Positions 241 through 55,216 of a stretch of 64,000 bases of DNA are shown piece after piece. The position numbers and the translations under genes were made by a program. This DNA comes from a virus (Duplodnaviria; Heunggongvirae; Uroviricota; Caudoviricetes): IMG/VR virus record IMGVR_UViG_3300043313_000558. One strand, given 5' to 3'. Under the pieces are notes generated by a model. That model did no database searches and had not been told where the DNA came from. It worked only from the letters and a program-made list of their open reading frames with translations. Numbering within the stretch: the stretch's first letter is position 1; the number at the start of each line of letters is the position of its first letter.

Positions 241-477
241 TCACGACAGCTCGGGTGGCCGAACCGACTCCGCCTGGTGGGTGGCCCTCGGGTCCTTGTT
301 CGGCACCGCGAAGACGGCACCACCGGAGACCAGGGCGATCACCGCGGCGGTGACCCACTCGTTGGTCATCACCTTGGAGCCGCCGTCGCTGGTCTCCAGC
401 AGGGCAGCGCCGATGGCGGTCAGGAAGGGGACCAGAATCGCGGTTATGGCCTTGTAGTACGGGGCGATGGTTTCCAT
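241..477 (-). CDS. holin-like small membrane protein (78 aa, two hydrophobic helices)
   Basis: internal Met METIAPYYKAITAILVPFLTAIGAALL..VTAAVIALVSGGAVFAV of the 241..585 ORF; start lies 3 nt after the stop of the upstream M15 peptidase gene. Confidence 0.5.
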   Translation of the reverse strand: METIAPYYKAITAILVPFLTAIGAALLETSDGGSKVMTNEWVTAAVIALVSGGAVFAVPNKDPRATHQAESVRPPELS

Positions 478-479
478 GT

Positions 480-1064
480 TCAGCGTCCGTCCTTGTAGAT
501 CTTCGGGTTGGCCTTGGTCGCGCCGGAGCCCATGTCGATGTGCTTGACCTTCTTGGAGACCGAGCCGTAGCCGATGTGGGTGCACACCTGCCAGCTCTTC
601 ACCTTGGTGGTCGAGTAGTAGGGCTGGGTGTCACTGGCCAGCCCGGACAGGTGGCGCGAGGTGGCCGAGCCACCGATCGCCTTGTTGTGGCTGGCACACC
701 GGCAGGCCGAGACGACGGTGAAGCTGCGGCCACTCTTGGTGCGGTACTGCTCCATCATCTGGAAGGCCTTGCGCTTGTGCCAGATCCGCTGGCAGGAGGA
801 GTACTTGCCCCCACACCGGCAGCGGACCTCGGTGAAGGAAAAGTGCGCGCTGGCGGTCGGCTGACCCGCCTTACGCCGGGCCTCGGACTTCAGCAGGGCA
901 GCCGAGGTCTTCGCCCCCACGCTGCCGTCCACGCTGAGCGCGCTGCCCAGGTTCCAGCCCGCCTGGAAGTTCTTCACGCAGGTCTTGTACTCGCTGGTGG
1001 TACGAACCCGCCAGCCGAGGTTGCGCAGGATCTTGGTGGCCTGAGCTTGGGTGAGGTTGGCCAT
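480..1064 (-). CDS. endolysin: N-terminal peptidoglycan-binding domain + peptidase M15 (VanY/DD-carboxypeptidase-fold) domain
   Basis: N-terminus ATKILRNLGW..LSVDGSVGAKTSAALL resembles PG_binding_1; C-terminus ..ACRCASHNKAIGGSATSRHLSGLASD has the SxHxxGxAxD zinc-ligand motif of M15 peptidases. Confidence 0.7.
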   Translation of the reverse strand: MANLTQAQATKILRNLGWRVRTTSEYKTCVKNFQAGWNLGSALSVDGSVGAKTSAALLKSEARRKAGQPTASAHFSFTEVRCRCGGKYSSCQRIWHKRKAFQMMEQYRTKSGRSFTVVSACRCASHNKAIGGSATSRHLSGLASDTQPYYSTTKVKSWQVCTHIGYGSVSKKVKHIDMGSGATKANPKIYKDGR

Positions 1065-5377: not shown

Positions 5378-7405
5378 TCAGGTCCCTATGTCTTCGACGA
5401 CGAACTGTCCGGGTGAGGTGGCGCTGCCCTGCATGGTGATCACGCCGGTGCCCGAGGCCCGGGCGACGGAGACCTTGAGGACGTGTGAGCCCGCGGTGAA
5501 CTGGCCGATGTAGGTGGCGGTCATGTTGAAGGCGGTGGTCGCCGGTGCCTGGCTGATCGAGGAGACCAGCGAGGTAGCGCCATCACGCAGGATCAGCTGG
5601 ATTCGGTCACCGGCCACAGTGGTGATGAAGTTGGCCCACACGTTCAGCTTGTACCAGCGACCCGCCACACAGGTGATCGTCGTGGTCAGCCCCGCGATAT
5701 CCACCGGGGTGGTGCTGTTGGCGGTGTTGGCGGTGTTCGCGGTGATCTGGCCCATCCCCATGATCCCCAGCGGACGGTAGTCGACCTCGGCGACCTTGTT
5801 GTCCACGTAGTTCTTGGTGGTGGCGTGGTCGGGGTTGACCGGGTCGGCCATCCCGTAGATCTTCTGGCCGTTCATGTTGAAGCTGACCCCGACGGTGATG
5901 TCGCCCATCCCCGCTGGGTTGTAGTCCAGCTTGGTAGTGCGGATCTCGGTCTTGCTGAACGGGTCGGGCGTGCTGCCCCCACTACCGCCACTGAAGGCCA
6001 CCCAGGCGTTGGTCGTACCACCGACCCAGATGTAGCTCAGCCCGGTGTCGGTCTCGTAGATGATCAGACCGTCCTGGACGAAGGTTGGCCGAGTAGAGCT
6101 GGTCACCGTCCACACGTTGGCGGCGCTGTAGACCCACTTCAGCCCGTCCCAGATCGCCAGGGCACGCTGGTTCTGGTTGTAGTACAGCTGCCCAGCCCCA
6201 CGCGGAGTGGGGAAGGAGAACAGCCCGCCGGTGTCGACATGGGTCTGGCAGCGCCAGGTCTGGGAGTCGGTGCCCAGCGTGGCCACCGGGTCGGTCTGGG
6301 TGAAGATCTTCATGTAGCTGGTGGTGCCAGCCAGCACCTTGACCTTGGCACCCTGGGTGACCTTGGCTGCGGTGTTCGCATCGGTAGCCCGGCTCCAGGC
6401 TCCGGCAGCTGCGACGTAGATCCCGTTGTCGAACGCGTTGGTCTGGTTCTTGACCAGGATCCGTTCGGTGGCGCTGAAGGCGTAGCCGTCGATGGTCGAA
6501 GTGCCGGACAGGGTGATGTTGGCGGTGGTCGCACAGGCGACCGGGGCCAGGTACCGATCCCCGCTGGCGGTGAGCACTGTCCCGTTGATCGTGGCCCCGC
6601 TGGCGGCCAGCTGGGTGAAAGTGGCCGCACCGGCCTGGGTGATCCTGGCGACCTCAGTGCCCGCGTTCTTCCAGGACAGGTCGGTGTACAGGATGTTGGC
6701 CTGGTACTTGTCCACCGTCGGCATCTCGTTGCCGGTCATCGGTCGGTCCAGGGCCCACTCGATCTCGCCCACCTGAGCAGCAGCACCAGGAGGTGCGGTC
6801 AGGGTGAACTCCACCTCGGAGAGCTGGTAGAAGCTGTTGTAGGCCTTCTGGATCAGCTGGTCGGGGCTACGGCGCACCTCGTCGACCGTGTTCAGGGTGT
6901 GCCAGCCCAGCCCATGCGGGGCGTAGTTGCAGTAGACCCGCACGCTGACCGACTCGGTCCAGGACACGTAGTAGTGACTGACGATGAACCAGCCGTAGGG
7001 AAAGCCGTAGAAGAAGCCGTTGAAGTTGACGTTGAGGACCACGTAGTTGTTCGCCGCGATGGTGAAGCCGCCCTCGTAGTCCCCGTCGAAGAACTGGTCG
7101 ACCTGGGCGTTGGACAGAGTGCCGAGCAGGGTCCCGCCGTTGCGGTCGTAGATCTTGGCGGTGACGGTCCAGCGCTCCCGGGCCTTGAACATCGCGTCGT
7201 TGAGCGCGCTTTGGTACAGGTGTCGGCCACCGAACGGGTTGGCGTTCATCACCAGGTCATCGTTGGACAAGGTGGCGTACCAACCGTTGCCGTTGCTGAT
7301 GTAGTGCTTGCCGTCGGTGGTGTTGAAGTAGGTGCTTCCGGCAGGCGCGATGGCAGGCGCGGTGGCATAGCGCTGCGCCCCGGTGATGCCGTATCGCTGC
7401 GGCAT
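5378..7405 (-). CDS. tail fibre protein (675 aa)
   Basis: real start MPQRYGITGAQRYATAPAIAPAGSTYFNTTDG at 7405 (ATGA overlap with upstream stop); the first 163 codons of the listed 838-aa ORF are R/H-rich out-of-context read-through; shares YFNT[AT]D and TKNYVD motifs with 7405..8652. Confidence 0.6.
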   Translation of the reverse strand: MPQRYGITGAQRYATAPAIAPAGSTYFNTTDGKHYISNGNGWYATLSNDDLVMNANPFGGRHLYQSALNDAMFKARERWTVTAKIYDRNGGTLLGTLSNAQVDQFFDGDYEGGFTIAANNYVVLNVNFNGFFYGFPYGWFIVSHYYVSWTESVSVRVYCNYAPHGLGWHTLNTVDEVRRSPDQLIQKAYNSFYQLSEVEFTLTAPPGAAAQVGEIEWALDRPMTGNEMPTVDKYQANILYTDLSWKNAGTEVARITQAGAATFTQLAASGATINGTVLTASGDRYLAPVACATTANITLSGTSTIDGYAFSATERILVKNQTNAFDNGIYVAAAGAWSRATDANTAAKVTQGAKVKVLAGTTSYMKIFTQTDPVATLGTDSQTWRCQTHVDTGGLFSFPTPRGAGQLYYNQNQRALAIWDGLKWVYSAANVWTVTSSTRPTFVQDGLIIYETDTGLSYIWVGGTTNAWVAFSGGSGGSTPDPFSKTEIRTTKLDYNPAGMGDITVGVSFNMNGQKIYGMADPVNPDHATTKNYVDNKVAEVDYRPLGIMGMGQITANTANTANSTTPVDIAGLTTTITCVAGRWYKLNVWANFITTVAGDRIQLILRDGATSLVSSISQAPATTAFNMTATYIGQFTAGSHVLKVSVARASGTGVITMQGSATSPGQFVVEDIGT

Positions 7406-49226: not shown

Positions 49227-50075
49227 TCACTTGGTGATGGTATTGGGGTCGGTCAGCTCAAAGTCCGCCAACGCCTCCTCCACCGAGGTGTAAACCGGTA
49301 GGTCAGGATATCTACTCCTGATCCTCTGCATCGCGTACTCATCCGGCTGGAAGGTGTGCGGGAACTGTCGCCGGATGTCGGCCATGAACGCCATCTGCAT
49401 GCTGTGGTAGCCGTTGCTGGCCTTGGTGTAGTTCCTCCAGCGGCGCTTGTGGACCTTGCCCACCACGGCCATCACCACAGTGCCCGACCAGCAGATCAAG
49501 GTCGGGATCGGAAACGGCAGCACCGTGGTGAAGGTCAGCACCAGCCCGAAGACCAGCAGGAACACCGCGGCGAACATCCCGAACCACAGCAGCCTCATGC
49601 TGGGCATCTTGGGCTCGCCGGGCTTCTCCTCGTACGCCGCGAGGGTGTCCTCGTCGTCGTAGGCCAGGGCCAGGATCTCCATCTTCTCGGAGCGGAAGCC
49701 CTGGTCACCGTAGGTGAGCCGACCGTAGGCCTTGACGATCGCGAAGACCCCGCCGACCGGCAGGTAGGTGTAGGCCCTCTTCTGGGTGAAGTAGGCGTAG
49801 AACCCACAGGAGCATTCCTGCATGGCCACCTTGTGGTCGACCAGCCCCTTCTCGGTGTACGCCTTGCCCATGTGGCCAACTCGGACCTGACGACGGACCA
49901 GCAGCCCACCGTCGTTGTAGTTGATGCAACCCGCCACGTTGGTATTGGTCGGGTTCCACACGAAGTGCTGCTGCGGGGAGTGGATGTACCCGCTGGCTGT
50001 GATCGTCATTGCCCTTATCCCCACCAGGTACCCCGGGTATACCGGGGCCGCGTGTCGGGAGAAGTAGTCCTCCAT
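49227..50075 (-). CDS. 282-aa protein with central transmembrane segment
   Basis: LLWFGMFAAVFLLVFGLVLTFTTVLPFPIPTLICWSGTVVMAVVG hydrophobic block between two soluble domains. Confidence 0.45.
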   Translation of the reverse strand: MEDYFSRHAAPVYPGYLVGIRAMTITASGYIHSPQQHFVWNPTNTNVAGCINYNDGGLLVRRQVRVGHMGKAYTEKGLVDHKVAMQECSCGFYAYFTQKRAYTYLPVGGVFAIVKAYGRLTYGDQGFRSEKMEILALAYDDEDTLAAYEEKPGEPKMPSMRLLWFGMFAAVFLLVFGLVLTFTTVLPFPIPTLICWSGTVVMAVVGKVHKRRWRNYTKASNGYHSMQMAFMADIRRQFPHTFQPDEYAMQRIRSRYPDLPVYTSVEEALADFELTDPNTITK

Positions 50076-50159: not shown

Positions 50160-50480
50160 CTAGGAGACCTTGTTCAGCTCGCCCTTGAAGGTGAGGTCCT
50201 CGGCGGTGTGCTTGCCGTTGTCGGGGTCCTCGCACTTGCAGTAGTACTGGTCGCGGTAGCCGTACTGGACGCACCTCCAGCACAGCCGGACGGTGTGGTA
50301 CTTCTCCTTGTCGGCCTGCGTCTTGCAGCAGTCGGAGTTGTCGACCTCGACCATGATGATCGCCGGGACGTCGTCACCACCGCGGTGGTTGACGTACTGG
50401 CACTTCTTGCCGGTCTCGCGGTACGGGTCGAAGGCCTCGTCTTCGGCCATCCGCTCGACGTTCACCTTGTAGTTACTCAT
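50160..50480 (-). CDS. Cys-rich 106-aa protein
   Basis: SDCCKTQ..LCWRCVQYGYRDQYYCKCED. Confidence 0.4.
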   Translation of the reverse strand: MSNYKVNVERMAEDEAFDPYRETGKKCQYVNHRGGDDVPAIIMVEVDNSDCCKTQADKEKYHTVRLCWRCVQYGYRDQYYCKCEDPDNGKHTAEDLTFKGELNKVS

Positions 50481-51261: not shown

Positions 51262-51586
51262 GATCGTGGCGCGGTTCACGCTCGACTCCTCAAATACTTG
51301 GTGGTCATCAACGCGCCCATGATCAGGCCGAAGAAGACCCAGTTCTCGGTGGCTAGTGCTGCGAACGCACAGACGGCGATGAAGCACCAGAAAAACAGGA
51401 AGGCCCCCACCAGGGCCGCGAACAGTTGGAAGAACAGCATTGGCTGGCCCTTCTAGGCGGGGACCTTTTCAGGCTCCTTGACGGGCTCCTTAGCAGGAGC
51501 AGGCTCAGGCTGGGTTGCCGGAACCTCGATGGGCTCGAACTCGACCTCGTGGGGGTCCTCACCGATGTTTCCCATGGGGCTGCCTT

Positions 51587-51862
51587 TCAGTTGGAGAGGG
51601 AAATAAGGGTGAAGATCACCCAGATGAAAAAGATCGCCGTGCCTCCGAGCACGACGACGATCAGCCACCATTTGGCGGCTGTTTGGAGCCAGGGCTTGGC
51701 CTTGGGATCTTGGCGGACCATGTTCTGGGAGGTCATCCGGCCCTGGTCGTTGATCTGCACCTCGGACTTGAACCGGGGCTTGGACCACCACAGGCGGACT
51801 ACTGCCGCGCCCATGGTGGTGATCGAGGCCAGGACCGCGAAGAACGGCGCGATAACCCTCAT
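51587..51862 (-). CDS. 2-TM small membrane protein (91 aa)
   Basis: internal start MRVIAPFFAVLASITTMGAAVV; second helix WWLIVVVLGGTAIFFIWVIFTLI. Confidence 0.4.
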   Translation of the reverse strand: MRVIAPFFAVLASITTMGAAVVRLWWSKPRFKSEVQINDQGRMTSQNMVRQDPKAKPWLQTAAKWWLIVVVLGGTAIFFIWVIFTLISLSN

Positions 51863-52098
51863 CGGCCGACCTTCTTCCCGGTCACGACCTCGTAGATGAT
51901 GACGCCGACCCAGCCCAAGATGACCAGCAACGTGCCGACCATCGACAGCAGCCCGATCAGCTCGAACTGGTCGGGCGCGACGAAGAAAGCGATCATCACG
52001 CAGAGCTGGAACAGGGCCAGGGCGCACAGCCCTAGCAACAGCGGAAGTGGCATCCCGGCGAACCACCTGACCAGGCGGTTCATCGGTTCATCTCCCAC
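51859..52098 (-). CDS. 2-TM small membrane protein (79 aa)
   Basis: PLPLLLGLCALALFQLCVMIAFFV and LLSMVGTLLVILGWVGVIIY. Confidence 0.4.
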   Translation of the reverse strand: MGDEPMNRLVRWFAGMPLPLLLGLCALALFQLCVMIAFFVAPDQFELIGLLSMVGTLLVILGWVGVIIYEVVTGKKVGR

Positions 52099-52448
52099 AG
52101 CAGGAGGTTGCCGATGGCGAGACCCACGAGGATCCCGCCCAAGATGGCCGCCATGTACTTGGCGACCGAGTGAATGCGATCTCTCATGTGGCCTCCAATG
52201 CCAGGTAGATCATGCAGCCGGTCGAGATCAGGATGCAGATCGTCAGAACGATCCCGATCAGGAAGTCGACCAGGTCGTCGGGCTTCTGCTTCTTGCTCAC
52301 GTGAGCGCCCAGGCCATGACGCCGAGGATGGCGACAACGGCGACGAGGGCGACGAACTGGAGTTCTCCATCGGTCATGCCCCCCTCACTAGCACAGCGGC
52401 GAACAGGACGACGATCACGAGCCAGGCACCCAGAGCCAGGTGCATGAA
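52080..52448 (-). other. cluster of three to four tiny (25-40 aa) single-TM peptide ORFs
   Basis: hand translations MRDRIHSVAKYMAAILGGILVGLAIGNLLLWEMNR; VSKKQKPDDLVDFLIGIVLTICILISTGCMIYLALEAT; MTDGELQFVALVAVVAILGVMAWALT; MFMHLALGAWLVIVVLFAAVLVRGA. Confidence 0.3.
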
Positions 52449-52653
52449 CATCTCGAAGCGGCGCTGCGACCGCTCCTCGTTCAAAGCTGCTCCAGGACGT
52501 TGTAGAGCTGGTTGATGCCGGTTCCCAGCAGCACCAGCCCGTAGCTGCGCATCTCCCGGTCGGTCATCTCGCCGGAGTCGAGCGCCCGAGTACAGGCGGC
52601 ACATCGAGTCCGACAGTGACCTAGTTCCAGGACCCCTTCCGGGTCGATGTGGT

Positions 52654-52926
52654 TCATAGCGCCTCCTTACAGGTCGGGTCGTTCGGCACGACGCTGATCG
52701 CGTCGTTGCTGGCCGTCTGGTAGATCCGGTTGCCGTGGTCGCAGGTGGTGGCGATCTTGGCGAACCCCGTGGGCATCAGGACGATGTCCCCGCTCTTGGT
52801 GGAGGTCTGACCCTCCTCGGAGTGCGGGTACTCACCGCAGGCCACCAGGGTGGCTCCGATGACGAAGATGACACCGGCGATCTTGAGCCGCTTGATGTCC
52901 GATCTGGTGAACAGAGGGCGCTTCAT
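52654..52926 (-). CDS. small lipoprotein (90 aa)
   Basis: signal peptide with lipobox IGATLVACG. Confidence 0.5.
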   Translation of the reverse strand: MKRPLFTRSDIKRLKIAGVIFVIGATLVACGEYPHSEEGQTSTKSGDIVLMPTGFAKIATTCDHGNRIYQTASNDAISVVPNDPTCKEAL

Positions 52927-53205
52927 GGGAGAAACACCTCCGCCAGCGCGTAGCCGAGGGCTACGAAGAACGCGATCCGGAAGGGCAGCATCTTCCTGCT
53001 CCAGAACCAGTTCATGAGTCCTCCCGGATCTCCAGCTGCCAGCGGTCCCCGTTGTAGACCAACGAGACCTCCTGGTCGCGGGTGTTCTCGGTAAGCCGGA
53101 CCTCGCTGCGCACCAGGAAGCCGAGGCCGTTGGCGGCGTCCTCGATGGCCTGCTGGGTCTCTACGGCCTGCCGGGCCAGCTCGAAGGGCAGGATCGCGAT
53201 GGTCC

Positions 53206-53496
53206 TCACGACTCCTCCTCGACGGGCTTGATCTCGTCCTCGTCGGTGAGGGTGACCTGGAAGACGGTCTTGTCGCCGATCGCCTTCTTGGCGGCCTCGA
53301 TGTCTCCCCACCAGCACTGGAAGCCCCAGACGCCCTTGCCGTCGTCGAGCAGGATGTAGGGGTTCTTGATCCCCAGCTCCTTGAATGGGCTGACGTCCGG
53401 AACGCGGTTACCGACGTAGGTGCCCTCGCCGAACACGTGGACGGAGACGTCGGTGGACTTCTGCATGGCCATCACCTTGGCCCCGACGGCGGTCAC
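53206..53496 (-). CDS. hypothetical 96-aa protein
   Basis: ORF. Confidence 0.35.
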   Translation of the reverse strand: MTAVGAKVMAMQKSTDVSVHVFGEGTYVGNRVPDVSPFKELGIKNPYILLDDGKGVWGFQCWWGDIEAAKKAIGDKTVFQVTLTDEDEIKPVEEES

Positions 53497-54413
53497 GGGT
53501 TCACCAGCGCGTTGCCGTAGGTGGGCTGCCAGGGGTTGATCCCCTTGGCGACCGCCTGCGCCTTGGCCCAGGCCTCGGCACCGCCGTAGCTACGGATCTC
53601 CGCAGCTCGGATCTGCGCCTCGATCTGGGCGACCTTGAGCTCGGCCTCCTTCTGGGAGACCTGGCTGTTGGCTGCCGCCTCCGCAGCCGAAGCGTCCGCC
53701 TTGGCCTTGGCCTCGGTGGCCTTGGCAGCGGCGATCGCCTCCTCCTGAGAGCGCACTGAGGCGACCAGGGACTCCGGGGCGATCGGCTGGGTGACCAGCA
53801 CCGAGTAGCCCTGGAAGAAGTCCTCCTGGCCCTCCATCTGCTGGTTGATCAGCCGGGCGATCGTCTCGTTGACGTCGGCGTTGATCTTGTCCTTGATCGA
53901 CGGATCGGAGCGCAGCTCGTTCCAGGTGTACTGCTTGGCGAGCCGGTCCAGCGAGGCGTCCAGCGGAGGTGCCATGTAGAGGTTGAGCACCTTGGTCCAG
54001 CCGTCACCGGTCTGGTTGTCCTCCATGTAGGCCCGGTACCGGTTCCCGATCAGGTCGTGGAACCGCTGCAGGACCTTGCAGTCGGTGTTGAGCACGAAGC
54101 TCAGCGTGCCCGGGATGGTCAGGGTCTGACCGTCCTTGGACACCACCTCGAAGGGCCCACGGTCGCTGCCGTTGACCCCGCGGAAGTCGAAGACCCGCTG
54201 GTTCTGGGGGTAGGCGTAGTAGTCGTCGCCCATCCCGGTACCCCAGTTGATCTGTCGGGTGGCTGCCGGGACGCAGCCCTTGTCCTCGTGGCCCTCGGAG
54301 ATACCGGAGCCCTTGTGCACGAACACCTCGTCAGCCTGGGTGCTGGGTGCGGAACACCCGGCAAGCGCCAGAGCTGCGAGGATGCCGCCTGCAACTGCCT
54401 TATTCATCTTCAT
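53493..54413 (-). CDS. lipoprotein (306 aa) with Ala/Glu-rich coiled-coil C-terminus
   Basis: lipobox LALAGCSAP; C-terminal ..AAAKATEAKAKADASAAEAAANSQVSQKEAELKVAQIEAQIRAAEIRSYGG coiled coil, reminiscent of SPFH/band-7 tails. Confidence 0.5.
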   Translation of the reverse strand: MKMNKAVAGGILAALALAGCSAPSTQADEVFVHKGSGISEGHEDKGCVPAATRQINWGTGMGDDYYAYPQNQRVFDFRGVNGSDRGPFEVVSKDGQTLTIPGTLSFVLNTDCKVLQRFHDLIGNRYRAYMEDNQTGDGWTKVLNLYMAPPLDASLDRLAKQYTWNELRSDPSIKDKINADVNETIARLINQQMEGQEDFFQGYSVLVTQPIAPESLVASVRSQEEAIAAAKATEAKAKADASAAEAAANSQVSQKEAELKVAQIEAQIRAAEIRSYGGAEAWAKAQAVAKGINPWQPTYGNALVNP

Positions 54414-54804
54414 TCTCTGCCTCTTCTTCTGTGATTGGAGTCAGTTGCGACTCGATGATGTGCGGTGTTTTCAACGTCTCAAGTGCCTCTTTGTGGCCCT
54501 CAAGCGCTTCCTGCTCGTTCGTGTACCGCCTGCAGTAGACCGAGCTGCGGTCCTCGTCATCAGGCATCCGAACGAAGATCATGGTTTCGAAGATGACCGG
54601 GTCACCTTCGTGGCTCCAGTTGTGGTTGATGCCGAGCCAGATGGTGGAGACGTCGAAGTCCCCGTACTGGTCGAAGGCCACCCGCCGGTAGTCCATCCAG
54701 TTCTTGGAGTCCCCAAGCAGCTCCACATACTGCTGGAAGCTGATCTTGTTGCCCTCACGGTCGTAGATGTCCATGTCGGGCAGGTCGGGGTACTTACGCG
54801 CCAT
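54400..54804 (-). CDS. hypothetical 134-aa acidic protein
   Basis: ORF. Confidence 0.4.
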   Translation of the reverse strand: MARKYPDLPDMDIYDREGNKISFQQYVELLGDSKNWMDYRRVAFDQYGDFDVSTIWLGINHNWSHEGDPVIFETMIFVRMPDDEDRSSVYCRRYTNEQEALEGHKEALETLKTPHIIESQLTPITEEEAENEDE

Positions 54805-55093
54805 CTCCGGTCTCCTCGGGGTCCGCGTAGAAGACCCCCAGGCAGCCCTGGGGGTGGGTGGTGACCTTGAAGCGCTGGGCGTCCAGGTCGTAGTGGTCGT
54901 AGATCATCGACCAGGTGGTGCCGAACAAGGACCAGGCCTCGGTGCGGGCGTCCTCCTCGTTGTCGGCCACGATGATGACGTACCCGTCTGGGTGCATGCC
55001 CAGGGGGTGTGGGTGGGTGCGGTACTGCACCCCGAAGGTGACGTAGAAGACGTGCTCCCGCGGGGTGGAAGCGGGGATCATCGGCTCTGCCAT
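54794..55093 (-). CDS. hypothetical 99-aa protein; first gene downstream of the promoter/hairpin cassette
   Basis: ORF with gaaaggg RBS. Confidence 0.4.
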   Translation of the reverse strand: MAEPMIPASTPREHVFYVTFGVQYRTHPHPLGMHPDGYVIIVADNEEDARTEAWSLFGTTWSMIYDHYDLDAQRFKVTTHPQGCLGVFYADPEETGDGA

Positions 55094-55124
55094 CGTGCTT
55101 CCCTTTCTGTTTAGGGCAGCAAAA

Positions 55125-55166
55125 AGCGCCCTGCTCCCAGGCCGGGCGTGGCCTGAAAGAGGGCGC
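55125..55166 (-). terminator. compound hairpin + T5 on minus strand, 18 nt downstream of a TATAAT box
   Basis: outer stem gcgccct / agggcgc, imperfect inner stem caggcc / ggcctg; plus-strand aaaaa at 55120-55124. Confidence 0.45.
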
Positions 55167-55171
55167 GAAAA

Positions 55172-55216
55172 CTTGCGTACCCCTATTATAGCAGTTTTTG
55201 ACCCGTTTTTACTACT
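55172..55216 (-). promoter_or_regulatory. conserved promoter-like element copy 2 (GGTCAAAAACTGCTATAATAG, extended -10 TGnTATAAT)
   Basis: plus-strand attata at 55185-55190; the core matches copy 1 at 37548-37600. Confidence 0.45.

Follow-up and report, generated by a model that had tools for sequence, protein, structure and literature searches.

What is a block of very small membrane proteins, set beside two lipoproteins, doing next to the tail genes of a phage? The block lies in a 64-kb stretch of DNA (64,000 nucleotides, here called the window) from an uncultured actinobacterial phage, where 16 close-packed genes, g1 to g16, occupy positions 51276-55093 of the minus strand. A first-pass annotation of the sequence had reported two lipobox proteins and at least six ORFs of 25 to 91 amino acids (aa) that are mostly transmembrane (TM) helix, and had assigned them to an early operon. 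All of these ORFs are present where it placed them, on the minus strand. The lipobox proteins are g3 (306 aa, LAGC) and g7 (90 aa, LVAC), and the small TM ORFs number eight (g6, g9 to g14, and g16), each of 26 to 91 aa with one or two TM helices.

Gene content and coding status of the block

The genes, in order of reading and with the evidence for each, are as follows.

54794..55093, minus strand: g1, 99 aa, soluble, first gene past the promoter-like site (GC3 0.94)
54400..54804, minus strand: g2, 134 aa, acidic, soluble (frame-specific GC3)
53493..54413, minus strand: g3, 306-aa SPFH/Band_7 lipoprotein (Pfam PF01145, phrog_200, AF2 model)
53206..53496, minus strand: g4, 88 to 96 aa, soluble, start overlapping the g3 stop (GTGA) (GC3 0.96)
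53012..53209, minus strand: g5, 65 aa, soluble, ribosome-binding site GAGGAGGAG (frame GC3)
52923..53015, minus strand: g6, 30-aa single-TM peptide, ribosome-binding site GGGAGG (GC3 0.87-0.90, frame switch, independent call)
52654..52926, minus strand: g7, 90-aa small lipoprotein, lipobox LVAC (homologue alignment)
52481..52657, minus strand: g8, 58 aa, soluble, Cys-rich N terminus, ribosome-binding site TAAGGAGG (frame GC3)
52374..52484, minus strand: g9, single-TM peptide, 36 aa (TTG start) or 25 aa (ATG at 52451) (GC3 frame switch)
52297..52377, minus strand: g10, 26-aa single-TM peptide (frame GC3, independent call)
52184..52300, minus strand: g11, 38-aa single-TM peptide (MSKKQKPDDLVDFLIG...) (GC3 0.90, homologues)
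52080..52187, minus strand: g12, 35-aa single-TM peptide (frame GC3)
51859..52083, minus strand: g13, 74-aa two-TM protein, alternative GTG start at 52098 (GC3 0.89)
51587..51862, minus strand: g14, 91-aa two-TM hairpin protein, candidate SPFH partner (homologues downstream of SPFH genes)
51453..51575, minus strand: g15, 40-aa acidic, Pro-rich peptide (MGNIGEDPHEVEFEP...EPEKVPA) (homologues)
51276..51440, minus strand: g16, 54-aa two-TM protein (GC3 0.82)

TM proteins are encoded by 9 of the 14 automatically called genes in the block and by 6 of 96 in the remainder of the window (Fisher p=1.6e-6), which bears out the membrane character first ascribed to it. The genome has a GC content of 64%, and a GC3 frame plot gave values of ~0.85-1.0 in the coding frame, with a change of frame at every proposed gene junction. 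The starts of most block genes overlap or abut the stop of the gene before, and GGAG-type ribosome-binding sites precede several of them. Identical tiny ORFs were predicted by independent gene callers in other assemblies of the same phage, and for g7 and g11 to g16 homologues occur even where the SPFH protein of the other phage is just 60-85% identical (for g12, a 26-aa match in locus L014 only).

It is very improbable that the sub-60-aa ORFs are chance hydrophobic ORFs within a GC-rich spacer. Such a reading could draw on g9 and g10, for which a search for diverged homologues returned only near-identical copies, on a family search that gave no match for any tiny ORF, and on dN/dS values for g11 and g12 of ~1 or >1, at saturation. 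Against it, GC3 is 0.81-0.97 precisely in the predicted frame of each ORF and switches at each junction, no noncoding space separates the ORFs, and g6, g11, g12, g13, g15, and g16 are independently called or kept in diverged phages. Because frame switches, ribosome-binding sites and start/stop overlaps, independent calls, diverged homologues, and TM enrichment place the tiny ORFs beyond chance, the block genes are real genes, g9 and g10 less surely so than the others; g10 is the weakest call among them.

Several of the remaining genes recur in related phages. g1 matches phrog_29337 and phrog_13997 (neither with a known function) and has homologues in L006, L015, L078, and L079, while the g2 homologue occurs in L078 only, in a slot upstream of the SPFH gene that varies. 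Homologues of g4 follow the SPFH gene immediately in L006 (43%) and L016; family searches of Pfam and PHROG gave no match for g4. No homologue of g5 was found beyond near-identical copies. g8 has an 81% homologue between the SPFH and g14 genes of L017, g9 is called as 36 aa in L003, and g12 matches L014 at 61%, with a 35-aa ORF at the equivalent position in L078. At matching positions lie a 55% identical 74-aa homologue of g13 (L078) and homologues of g15 that are 51-75% identical (L006, L078, and L079); g16 has homologues in L006 and L078 (dN/dS 0.2-0.5). By eye, g6 resembles a 30-aa ORF of L079 and a C-terminal extension of the L078 SPFH protein (AxGYxL motif); blastp found no link between g6 and either.

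Two elements lie upstream of g1, in a 123-bp gap (55094-55216).

55185..55193, minus strand: extended -10 promoter-like element TGCTATAAT, inside the conserved GGGTCAAAAACTGCTATAAT (sequence motif)
55121..55166, minus strand: leader hairpin, GC-rich, 17 bp, with UUUUU after it, lying between the promoter-like element and g1 (RNA fold)

TGNTATAAT has its sole perfect copy here in 64 kb on both strands (0.09 expected), and CTGnTATAAT is unchanged in L006, L078, and L079. These three also carry a hairpin and T-run at the equivalent place, with different stem sequences; the window's gap folds at -50.1 kcal/mol (z=-3.95). The hairpin and U tract, which together with the promoter-like site separate the block from the adjoining tail operon, may be a terminator of that operon, an attenuator, or a 5' stabilizer. 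Lying between the promoter-like site and g1, they could limit block expression. A unique TGnTATAAT followed by a hairpin and U tract, conserved in three diverged relatives, agrees with the early-operon placement: the block is probably the promoter-proximal end of an early operon read by host RNA polymerase, and its expression would be early. Annotated SPFH homologues also lie in early regions, after cro/xis in GuuelaD and among RecT/SSB genes in PSonyx.

The SPFH lipoprotein and the genes that accompany it

The first-pass annotation held that no protein of the block resembles a characterized family. For g3 this is wrong, since it matches Pfam PF01145 (E=2.4e-10; 41.2 bits against a cutoff of 23.6) and phrog_200 (E=3e-21). 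The earlier description, a coiled coil reminiscent of SPFH/band-7 tails, was too weak: g3 is a full SPFH/Band_7 protein. Its N terminus (MKMNKAVAGGILAALALAGC|S) holds a signal peptide and the LAGC lipobox, followed by SPFH1/2, a 62-residue Ala/Glu-rich coiled-coil helix (214-275), and a conserved C-terminal GLNPxQPTYG. Homologues form 76 clusters; of 31 homologues compared, at least 90% keep the lipobox Cys, and C47 and C112 are invariant. From the lipobox, g3 is predicted to be extracytoplasmic and lipid anchored, and the C47-C112 pair probably stabilizes the exported protein. In the AF2 model (pLDDT 85), SPFH1/2 is followed by CC1, CC2, and the tail. Its top Foldseek matches in the PDB are erlin, HflK/C, prohibitin, stomatin, flotillin, and QmcA, all of them cage-forming SPFH proteins aligned over their full length (~270-320 aligned columns). 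By sequence, no similarity to PDB chains was detectable, and the structural alignments are 10-17% identical. Like these structural relatives, g3 may form an oligomeric cage.

The first-pass annotation missed that the block is more than a loose assortment: it holds a conserved cassette, in which g14 accompanies g3. A g14 gene lies downstream of the SPFH gene in the window and in L006, L008, L014, L017, L078, L079, and L080, that is, in all loci with an SPFH protein at least 60% identical and sufficient flanking sequence. The consensus is MRVxAPFFAVLAS..VRLWWSKPR, a variable loop, and PKAxxWLxTAAKWWL..GGT. AF2 predicts two helices (4-27 and 57-90), and the TM helices are better conserved than the loop, which is probably cytoplasmic because it is rich in K/R. 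As g14 would then be almost unexposed on the side of g3, any contact between them would be intramembrane. In a large database g14 forms 16 clusters, and at least 7 of these come from contigs equal in length to contigs with SPFH matches. L010 has a 76-aa two-TM ORF with a weak blastp link to g14 (E<0.01) that two profile searches missed.

Two further genes often accompany this pair. Homologues of g11 (38-42 aa) lie between the SPFH and g14 genes in L008, L014, and L080; the backbone of L008 and L080 is an unrelated ERF/PDDEXK operon, in which the cassette is reduced to SPFH-g11-g14. The lipoprotein g7 ends in a domain with the pattern MPxGFxxxATxCDHGNRxY...VVPNDPTC and two invariant Cys residues, and it has no match in Pfam or the PDB. 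Its distant relatives number 59; one is an 850-aa multidomain match, and the others are 64-168 aa long. Across the family alignment the lipobox is kept and C62, Y69, D83, and C86 are invariant. g7, a predicted disulfide lipoprotein, belongs to an unannotated "CDHGNR" family of its own. Members adjoin SPFH genes in L006, L014, and L047, the last with an SPFH protein only 34% identical to g3.

These neighbors could instead be unrelated, "moron-like" membrane genes, with the TM ORFs, g7, and g3 gathered independently at a hotspot where the early operon begins. The content between SPFH and g14 does differ in each relative (1 to 10 ORFs), g5, g9, and g10 are without diverged homologues, the gene upstream of SPFH changes between phages, and the SPFH lipoproteins of Mycobacterium Cluster L phages are without TM neighbors, so that a partner need not be general. 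We nevertheless consider the hotspot unlikely, given a g14 gene after SPFH in 8/8 informative loci on two unrelated backbones, g11 on both backbones, and g7-family lipoproteins beside SPFH proteins as diverged as that of L047. Fixed SPFH and g14 ends around a variable interior resemble a cassette, not random accretion. As judged from these comparisons, SPFH and g14, with g11 and g7 in some loci, form a conserved, horizontally mobile cassette, and g3 may interact physically with g14 and the peptides.

Candidate functions of the block

Lysis timing, one of three roles first suggested, would make the small TM proteins holins or antiholins, with the SPFH lipoprotein tuning holin triggering or acting like a spanin. 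Actinophage lysis cassettes usually lie directly downstream of tail genes, as the block does; several of its one- and two-TM proteins are of holin size, and the L008/L080 cassette abuts a convergent Amidase_2 endolysin gene. However, a separate lysis pair is present in the window, at 241-1064.

480-1064: 194-aa endolysin, Peptidase_M15_3 / phrog_894 (family match)
241-477: 78-aa two-TM holin-like ORF after the M15 endolysin (position, TM count)

Since this pair lies 50 kb away, the block is probably not the lysis cassette. Family searches found no endolysin inside or near the block, and a holin family search gave no match. The L080 amidase has its own flanking TM proteins (47 and 51 aa) on the opposite strand, and the hairpin/U tract and promoter-like site divide the block from the tail operon. 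We therefore judge a lysis role quite improbable.

Superinfection exclusion is the best supported of the three suggested roles, by association: in L079 the SPFH gene has a Pfam Lipoprotein_Ltp gene (E=8e-19) as its immediate upstream neighbor. The association is seen at one locus, where Ltp occupies the variable slot. Lipoproteins are also found among the known phage exclusion proteins, for example T5 Llp, produced soon after infection, and TP-J34 Ltp, from a temperate phage. We tentatively favor, at somewhat less than even confidence, an early-expressed envelope-remodeling cassette with an extracytoplasmic SPFH cage at its core, for superinfection exclusion or envelope protection. Exported g3, lipid anchored through its lipobox, would sit on the outer face of the cytoplasmic membrane, where its SPFH domains, coiled coil, and C-terminal tail would assemble into a ring or cage fencing a membrane patch, as in its relatives. 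The g14 hairpin, often with g11 and other tiny TM peptides, would be its in-membrane partner or client, and g7 a second extracytoplasmic component. Made first after infection, the assembly would alter the membrane surface so that DNA delivery by later phages is blocked. Against this reading, PADLOC returned no match among the block proteins, and in the literature we found no experiment that ties a phage SPFH protein to exclusion; the role of the phage protein has been termed unclear (PMC13239085), and mild toxicity upon overexpression of LeBron gp49 is the only phenotype found for a phage SPFH protein (PMC13148394).

By analogy with HflK/C, the g3 cage might instead enclose or shield an FtsH-type protease or other host membrane complexes, so that phage membrane microproteins are stabilized or turnover of host membrane proteins is reprogrammed. 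Tiny TM peptides, abundant in the block, are the substrate type cleared by FtsH-type quality control. The highest TM-scores of g3 are to HflK/C-FtsH complexes (TMq 0.41-0.45), its predicted topology, with an extracytoplasmic SPFH domain, is that of HflK/C, and HflK/C regulates the degradation of membrane proteins by FtsH (PMC12048511). Nostocoides and Mycobacterium carry cellular homologues 35-50% identical to g3 in unremarkable chromosomal surroundings, so the phage gene may be a captured host housekeeping function. Yet there is one SPFH gene and no HflK/HflC pair, a lipid anchor replaces the FtsH-contacting N-terminal TM helix, and the block has no FtsH-related gene or motif. FtsH binding by actinobacterial SPFH lipoproteins would be an analogy, and the neighboring Ltp and g7 lipoproteins are left unexplained. 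Proteostasis thus appears doubtful.

Comparison with known systems

SPFH lipoprotein genes are already known from many phages, and SPFH genes have also been noted among T4-like and N4-like phages. g3 belongs to the same Pfam/PHROG family as the actinophage "band-7-like membrane protein" (PHROG 200), whose annotated members include LeBron gp49 and GuuelaD gp51 (Mycobacterium Cluster L), Rhodococcus phage E3 gp172, and Corynebacterium phage PSonyx gp94. By tblastn they are 27-34% identical to g3, none covering 80% or more of the query. The two examined, GuuelaD gp51 and PSonyx gp94, have an N-terminal lipobox like that of g3, and the annotated genes are nonstructural and lie in early regions, as here. 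The present clade has g14, g11, and g7, which the Cluster L phages lack; PSonyx has a different two-TM protein upstream of SPFH.

Among cellular systems, HflK/HflC-FtsH, stomatin, prohibitin, erlin, flotillin, and QmcA-YbbJ share with the g3 model the order SPFH1/2, coiled coil, and tail. The SPFH domain is extracytoplasmic in HflK/C and, by prediction, in g3, which differs in being a single gene with a lipid anchor in place of an N-terminal TM helix. SPFH-NfeD operons likewise link SPFH to small membrane-protein genes; an NfeD-type partner is missing from the block, where g4 and g14 have no Pfam match. SPFH proteins of Nostocoides/Tetrasphaera (45-50% identical) and Mycobacterium (~35%) align with g3 over the full length and share its C-terminal motif. 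Those of Mycobacterium are also lipoproteins (LSGC/LTGC), whereas those of Nostocoides use an N-terminal TM anchor and have no lipobox. The cellular Actinomycetota copies lie among housekeeping genes, not in prophages, with no g14-like gene downstream.

TP-J34 Ltp (PF07553) and T5 Llp are small phage lipoproteins that act at the cell envelope and are expressed early or from the prophage. g3 and g7 match neither PF07553 nor any exclusion family, so their likeness to Ltp and Llp is one of functional analogy only; the sister phage L079 has a true Ltp-family gene adjoining its SPFH gene. New here, besides this neighbor gene in L079, is that a g14 gene accompanies SPFH on two unrelated backbones, at eight independent loci, often together with g11 and g7.

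Genes of the block and its promoter-like site

Within the minus-strand block at 51276-55093, the stretch 51280-54413 had been described, from the sequence by itself, as an early operon of tiny transmembrane (TM) peptides and two lipoproteins. Because GC3 in coding frames is ~0.9 in this genome, we examined the block with a GC3 frame plot. From 55093 to 51276, the high-GC3 frame shifted exactly at the start and end of each small gene, and inspection of start sites gave an unbroken chain of 16 genes, designated g1 to g16 in transcription order. Most starts overlapped or abutted the preceding stop, several were preceded by GGAG-type ribosome-binding sites, and the same tiny ORFs were called by gene callers on other assemblies. 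Genes with TM segments accounted for 9 of 14 in the block and 6 of 96 elsewhere in the window (Fisher P = 1.6e-6), with counts resting on a crude automatic ORF tiling. dN/dS was <1 for g13 to g16, a figure given little weight because extreme GC3 bias constrains synonymous sites.

Genes of the block with a lipobox or consisting of nearly pure TM helix (n = 8 for the latter)
g3: 306 aa, lipobox LAGC
g7: 90 aa, lipobox LVAC
g6: 30 aa, TM helix
g9: 25/36 aa, TM helix
g10: 26 aa, TM helix
g11: 38 aa, TM helix
g12: 35 aa, TM helix
g13: 74 aa, TM helix (two)
g14: 91 aa, TM helix (two)
g16: 54 aa, TM helix (two)

All of the ORFs named in the first-pass annotation are present, and frame switches, start/stop overlaps, independent gene calls, and TM enrichment bear out its description of the block. 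It is thus very improbable that the ORFs of fewer than 60 aa are non-genes; g9 and g10, which have no diverged homologues, are the weakest calls. The locus illustrates that GC3 periodicity can validate ORFs of 26 to 40 aa. Searches of 50-56 kb against Rfam and a search against NCBIfam returned nothing, and a repeat scan of the region found only chance-level short repeats.

The window has 64% GC, and every credible gene lies on the minus strand. It matches an 82.8-kb contig from a metagenome (JGI sample 3300067032), along with a number of shorter, near-identical contigs. When the region was compared by Megablast with 50,697 phage genomes, no match was obtained, and the 724-aa tail protein had one weak match; the phage is only distantly akin to anything deposited. 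IMG/VR contained only 2 related loci. In transcription order, a tape-measure protein and tail genes come first; a gap of 123 bp separates them from the block, after which ~20 kb is taken up by small genes of unknown function. Genes for a DnaB-like helicase, primase, DNA polymerase, and Cas4-type exonuclease come next, then a weak terminase match (phrog_9, E = 1e-7), fibre/decoration-like proteins, the portal, and, at the low end of the window, a small lysis pair. Just downstream of the block, g18 and g19 are kept in the related phage loci L006, L078, and L079 (35 to 63% identity) and matched no family; the membrane-protein theme may extend past the region first delimited.

Features flanking the block
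To 55217, minus strand: tape-measure protein (1942 aa in total, extending beyond the window edge), then tail genes
50160-50480, minus strand: g18, 106 aa, Cys-rich
49227-50075, minus strand: g19, 282 aa, two central TM helices

The gap (55094-55216, minus strand) contains TGCTATAAT, the only perfect extended -10 element in the window (0.09 expected by chance), within a 20-mer occurring nowhere else in the window. A 17-bp hairpin (z = -3.95) with U5 behind it lies about 20 nt downstream, before g1. CTGnTATAAT is unchanged in three relatives despite identities of only ~50 to 67% in the flanking proteins; this supports a real host-type promoter from which a separate transcription unit begins beyond the tail genes. 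A hairpin and T-run are also present at all three relatives' sites, with different stem sequences.

Leader counterparts in the three relatives
L006: 7070-7154
L078: 4466-4577
L079: 3597-3726

The hairpin may be a terminator of the tail operon, an attenuator of the early transcript, or a 5′-end stabiliser. Because the order of promoter and then terminator-like element is kept in four diverged phages with differing stems, a leader with a regulatory or stabilising role seems more likely than a simple terminator. Annotated homologues have early-region positions as well: that of GuuelaD comes after cro/xis, and that of PSonyx lies among RecT/SSB genes. The unique, conserved TGnTATAAT and these early-region homologues agree with the early-operon placement first proposed, and the predicted early timing of the block is well supported by position.

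The SPFH lipoprotein and its relatives

The first-pass annotation held that none of the block's products resembles a characterised family, a statement that fails for g3, which matched Pfam, PHROGs, and known structures. The protein scored 41.2 bits against PF01145 (gathering cutoff, 23.6; E = 2.4e-10; profile positions 25-176 of 176), and most of its homologues carry a precomputed match to the same family. It also matched phrog_200 ("lipoprotein") over residues 2-272 (E = 3.2e-21). tblastn with g3 recovered 118 phage records at 27 to 34% identity, mostly Mycobacterium Cluster L phages plus Rhodococcus phage E3 and Corynebacterium phage PSonyx, where the gene matched carries one of three annotations: band-7-like membrane protein, lipoprotein, or hypothetical protein. 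In a large protein database, homologues formed 76 clusters (46 to 100% identity). g3 belongs, as a diverged member, to a phage gene family that is known but has no characterised function.

In the alignment of homologues, the lipobox Cys is present in ≥90%, C47 and C112 are invariant, and a C-terminal GLNPxQPTYG is kept. An AF2 model of the monomer, with the homologue alignment as input, had a pLDDT of 85 and comprised strands and helices at 29-207, corresponding to the SPFH alpha/beta region, a 62-residue helix at 214-275, a short helix at 279-289, and the conserved tail. The top 29 Foldseek matches in the PDB were full-length chains of cage-forming SPFH proteins (erlin, HflK/C, prohibitin, stomatin, flotillin, and QmcA), followed by structures of isolated SPFH domains. 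The SPFH profile of g3 had no match among PDB sequences.

Lipoprotein signals were assessed by a positively charged n-region, a hydrophobic h-region, and a lipobox of the form [LVI][ASTVI][GAS]C. The N termini of both g3 (MKMNK-AVAGGILAALA-LAGC) and g7 (MKRPLFTRSDIKRLK-IAGVIFVIGAT-LVAC) fit this pattern, and the lipobox is conserved in each family. Membrane attachment of g3 is thus predicted to be by a lipid anchor, a variant with respect to the TM segment or hairpin of SPFH proteins.

Full-length cellular homologues of g3 (one genome per species) were 45 to 50% identical in Nostocoides (Tetrasphaera) and ~35% identical in Mycobacterium.

Cellular SPFH loci
Nostocoides: L055, L057, L058, L060, L061
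Mycobacterium: L063, L066, L070, L071

Their neighbours encode an acyl-CoA ligase-type enzyme, GPP34, DUF520, CoxE/XdhC, RNase H, and GH6. Since these are ordinary cellular genes, we regard the chromosomal copies as host genes; a prophage origin was ruled out by the housekeeping flanks. By the same context, the phage SPFH gene appears to be a captured actinobacterial gene, and its identity to the Nostocoides proteins hints at a probable actinobacterial host resembling Intrasporangiaceae. An N-terminal TM anchor is found in the Nostocoides proteins, and a lipobox in the Mycobacterium proteins and most phage copies, so the anchor type has been swapped within one family.

One copy departs from the usual ...QPTYG end: the SPFH protein of L078 (P0006, 335 aa, 5672-6679) continues into a TM segment, RTRVLAMLLAAAAGYGLMEIVDRMFLS, that resembles a separate 30-aa ORF of L079 (6912-7004), MRGWTRVLVLLLATVAGYGLMTIITQVYLS. 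This extension is either a natural fusion of SPFH protein and peptide or an artefact of an indel in the long-read assembly; a natural fusion would argue for a physical SPFH-peptide partnership.

A cassette with fixed ends and a variable interior

Contigs carrying diverged SPFH homologues were compared ORF by ORF. Eight loci have g14 downstream of SPFH: those of the window, L006, L008, L014, L017, L078, L079, and L080. They comprise every phage locus with an SPFH protein ≥60% identical and enough flank. At L010, a 2-TM positional analogue overlaps the SPFH stop and shows only a weak blastp link; a g14 HMM did not recruit the 2-TM proteins of L010 or L019. L008 and L080 belong to a different phage type, in which the cassette closes a rightward ERF/PDDEXK operon converging on tail and Amidase_2 genes and has shrunk to SPFH, one to three tiny ORFs, and g14. 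Of the 16 g14 clusters in the large database, at least 7 come from contigs whose length equals that of contigs with SPFH matches.

An AF2 model of g14 consists of two helices without a soluble domain. Because its TM helices (invariant A12, S13, T16, A19, W58, W66, G73, and T75) are far more conserved than its variable K/R-rich loop, the pattern fits an in-membrane interaction surface. Both backbones have g11 (38 to 42 aa) in the interval from SPFH to g14 (window, L008, L014, and L080); g13, g15, and g16 are conserved in closer relatives, and g4, g5, g8, g9, and g10 occur sporadically or in this phage only. The cassette thus appears to have fixed ends (SPFH...g14) and a variable interior of micro-TM genes. 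Such an interior is what a hotspot of unrelated accessory genes might contain; with both ends kept and g11 shared across backbones, we consider a mere hotspot unlikely.

A second family recurs with the cassette. Exhaustive search found 59 relatives of g7 (word-indexed search returned g7 alone), bringing the family to about 60 small lipoproteins, which share two invariant Cys and the motif ...CDHGNRxY...VVPNDPTC. The family had no Pfam match, and a PDB profile search gave one insignificant match (E = 0.61). Its members adjoin SPFH genes in L006, L014, and L047, the last with an SPFH protein only 34% identical. The locus documents g14 and the "CDHGNR" lipoprotein g7 as two unannotated small-protein families. 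What is new here is the conserved SPFH-g14(-g11) cassette, together with its mobility from one phage backbone to another, the companion lipoprotein family that recurs with it, and its position at a conserved early promoter-like site.

Three further observations concern the surroundings of SPFH genes. First, g15 (51453-51575, minus strand) encodes an acidic, Pro-rich protein of 40 aa (MGNIGEDPxEVEFEP...EPEKVPA) with no TM segment and no family match; with counterparts at L006 10169-10291, L078 7271-7390, and L079 7286-7408 (51 to 75% identity), it ranks with the best conserved of the small products encoded immediately past the cassette. Second, at 7001-8585 of L019/L020, on contigs of 89 to 161 kb, a 48%-identical SPFH protein has a signal anchor and no lipobox; the next genes encode a 2-TM protein of 74 aa, unrelated to g14, and a lipoprotein of 93 aa, so the SPFH/2-TM/small-lipoprotein architecture recurs with non-homologous parts. 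Third, genes for Ro60/TROVE-like RNA-binding proteins lie 0.3 to 3 kb from SPFH in three phage contexts: L010 (3627-5264), L014 (5028-6650; 37% identical to that of L010, E = 1e-104), and GuuelaD (L076, 6801-8231; gp54, annotated as Ro-like). The window contains no such gene, and the proximity may be a coincidence of early-region content.

Candidate functions and comparison with known systems

Lysis timing had been among the functions first suggested. The endolysin and a 2-TM ORF lie far from the block, at the low end of the window.

Probable lysis pair
480-1064, minus strand: endolysin candidate, 194 aa (Peptidase_M15_3, E = 6e-14; phrog_894 endolysin, E = 1e-17)
241-477, minus strand: 78-aa 2-TM ORF following the endolysin, ending ...GGAVFAVPN; holin-like by position and topology only, with no family match

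With the M15 endolysin and its 2-TM ORF at 241-1064 and neither in the block, a lysis cassette was rejected, and the small TM peptides are quite unlikely to set lysis timing. No endolysin was found in or beside the block, no block ORF matched a holin family, and the window contains no Amidase_2 or PG-binding homologue. The amidase of L080 has small TM neighbours of its own, on the opposite strand. The location of the lysis pair, downstream of the portal and far from the tail genes, is unusual. A spanin made of a coiled-coil lipoprotein and a small lipoprotein was likewise rejected: g3 has an SPFH fold, the block is not beside the endolysin, and actinobacteria are the probable hosts. So was an SPFH-NfeD operon (PF01957), as g4, g5, g13, g14, and g16 gave no Pfam match at E ≤ 0.1. 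Ten proteins (eight of the block plus g17, a downstream gene, and g19) had no match in PADLOC-DB at E ≤ 0.01.

SPFH proteins form rings or domes enclosing a patch of membrane (PMC12624060, PMC11348225, PMC12048511). Because its fold and domain order are homologous to theirs, g3 would be expected to build likewise on the cytoplasmic membrane, with its lipid anchor fixing it to the outer face. The peptides, g14 and g11 among them, would be candidate in-membrane partners or contents of the assembly, and g7 could be a second surface component.

For the block as a whole, we tentatively favour superinfection exclusion or envelope protection, a role that is possible by analogy: its genes come first after the early promoter-like site, it encodes surface lipoproteins like Llp of T5 and Ltp of TP-J34, its interior is hypervariable, and in L079 an Ltp-family gene lies directly upstream of SPFH. 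All of this support is association. Among published accounts, the only phenotype reported was mild toxicity of LeBron gp49 (PMC13148394), SPFH genes were noted in T4-like phages (PMC1524935), and the reason why phages carry them was called unclear (PMC13239085).

A bolder and rather doubtful proposal is that SPFH and g14 (with g11 and g7) make up a self-contained mobile system, an outer-face, lipid-anchored cage corralling phage micro-TM peptides. If true, viruses would encode a membrane-microdomain device of a new class, one that closes an infected cell to injection of further DNA or hijacks host membrane proteostasis, and a first function would be assigned to the widespread phage SPFH genes. 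Actinophages, T4-like phages, and N4-like phages all include carriers of SPFH/Band-7 genes, and recent papers leave their presence unexplained. The locus offers a testable minimal unit, an SPFH lipoprotein, a 38-aa peptide, and a 2-TM hairpin found on unrelated backbones; it sits behind the apparent main early promoter and, in one relative, beside a true exclusion-family lipoprotein. An exclusion or membrane-proteostasis device, if proven, would assign a function to phage SPFH proteins and add a viral example to the fast-growing structural biology of SPFH cages.

Among known systems, HflK/C gives g3 a fold-level likeness without a sequence-level match to the PDB chains. HflK and HflC are paired paralogues with N-terminal TM helices, associated with FtsH, whereas g3 is a single gene with a lipobox; we regard HflK/C-like control of host membrane proteolysis as an improbable role. 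The exclusion proteins Llp and Ltp are surface lipoproteins. Neither g3 nor g7 matched the Ltp domain (PF07553), which occurs only in the L079 lipoprotein upstream of SPFH. The 152-aa lipoprotein at 5089-5547 of L079 has two Lipoprotein_Ltp repeats (PF07553, E = 8e-19) and the lipobox LTAC, and it shares its family with the superinfection-exclusion protein of TP-J34.
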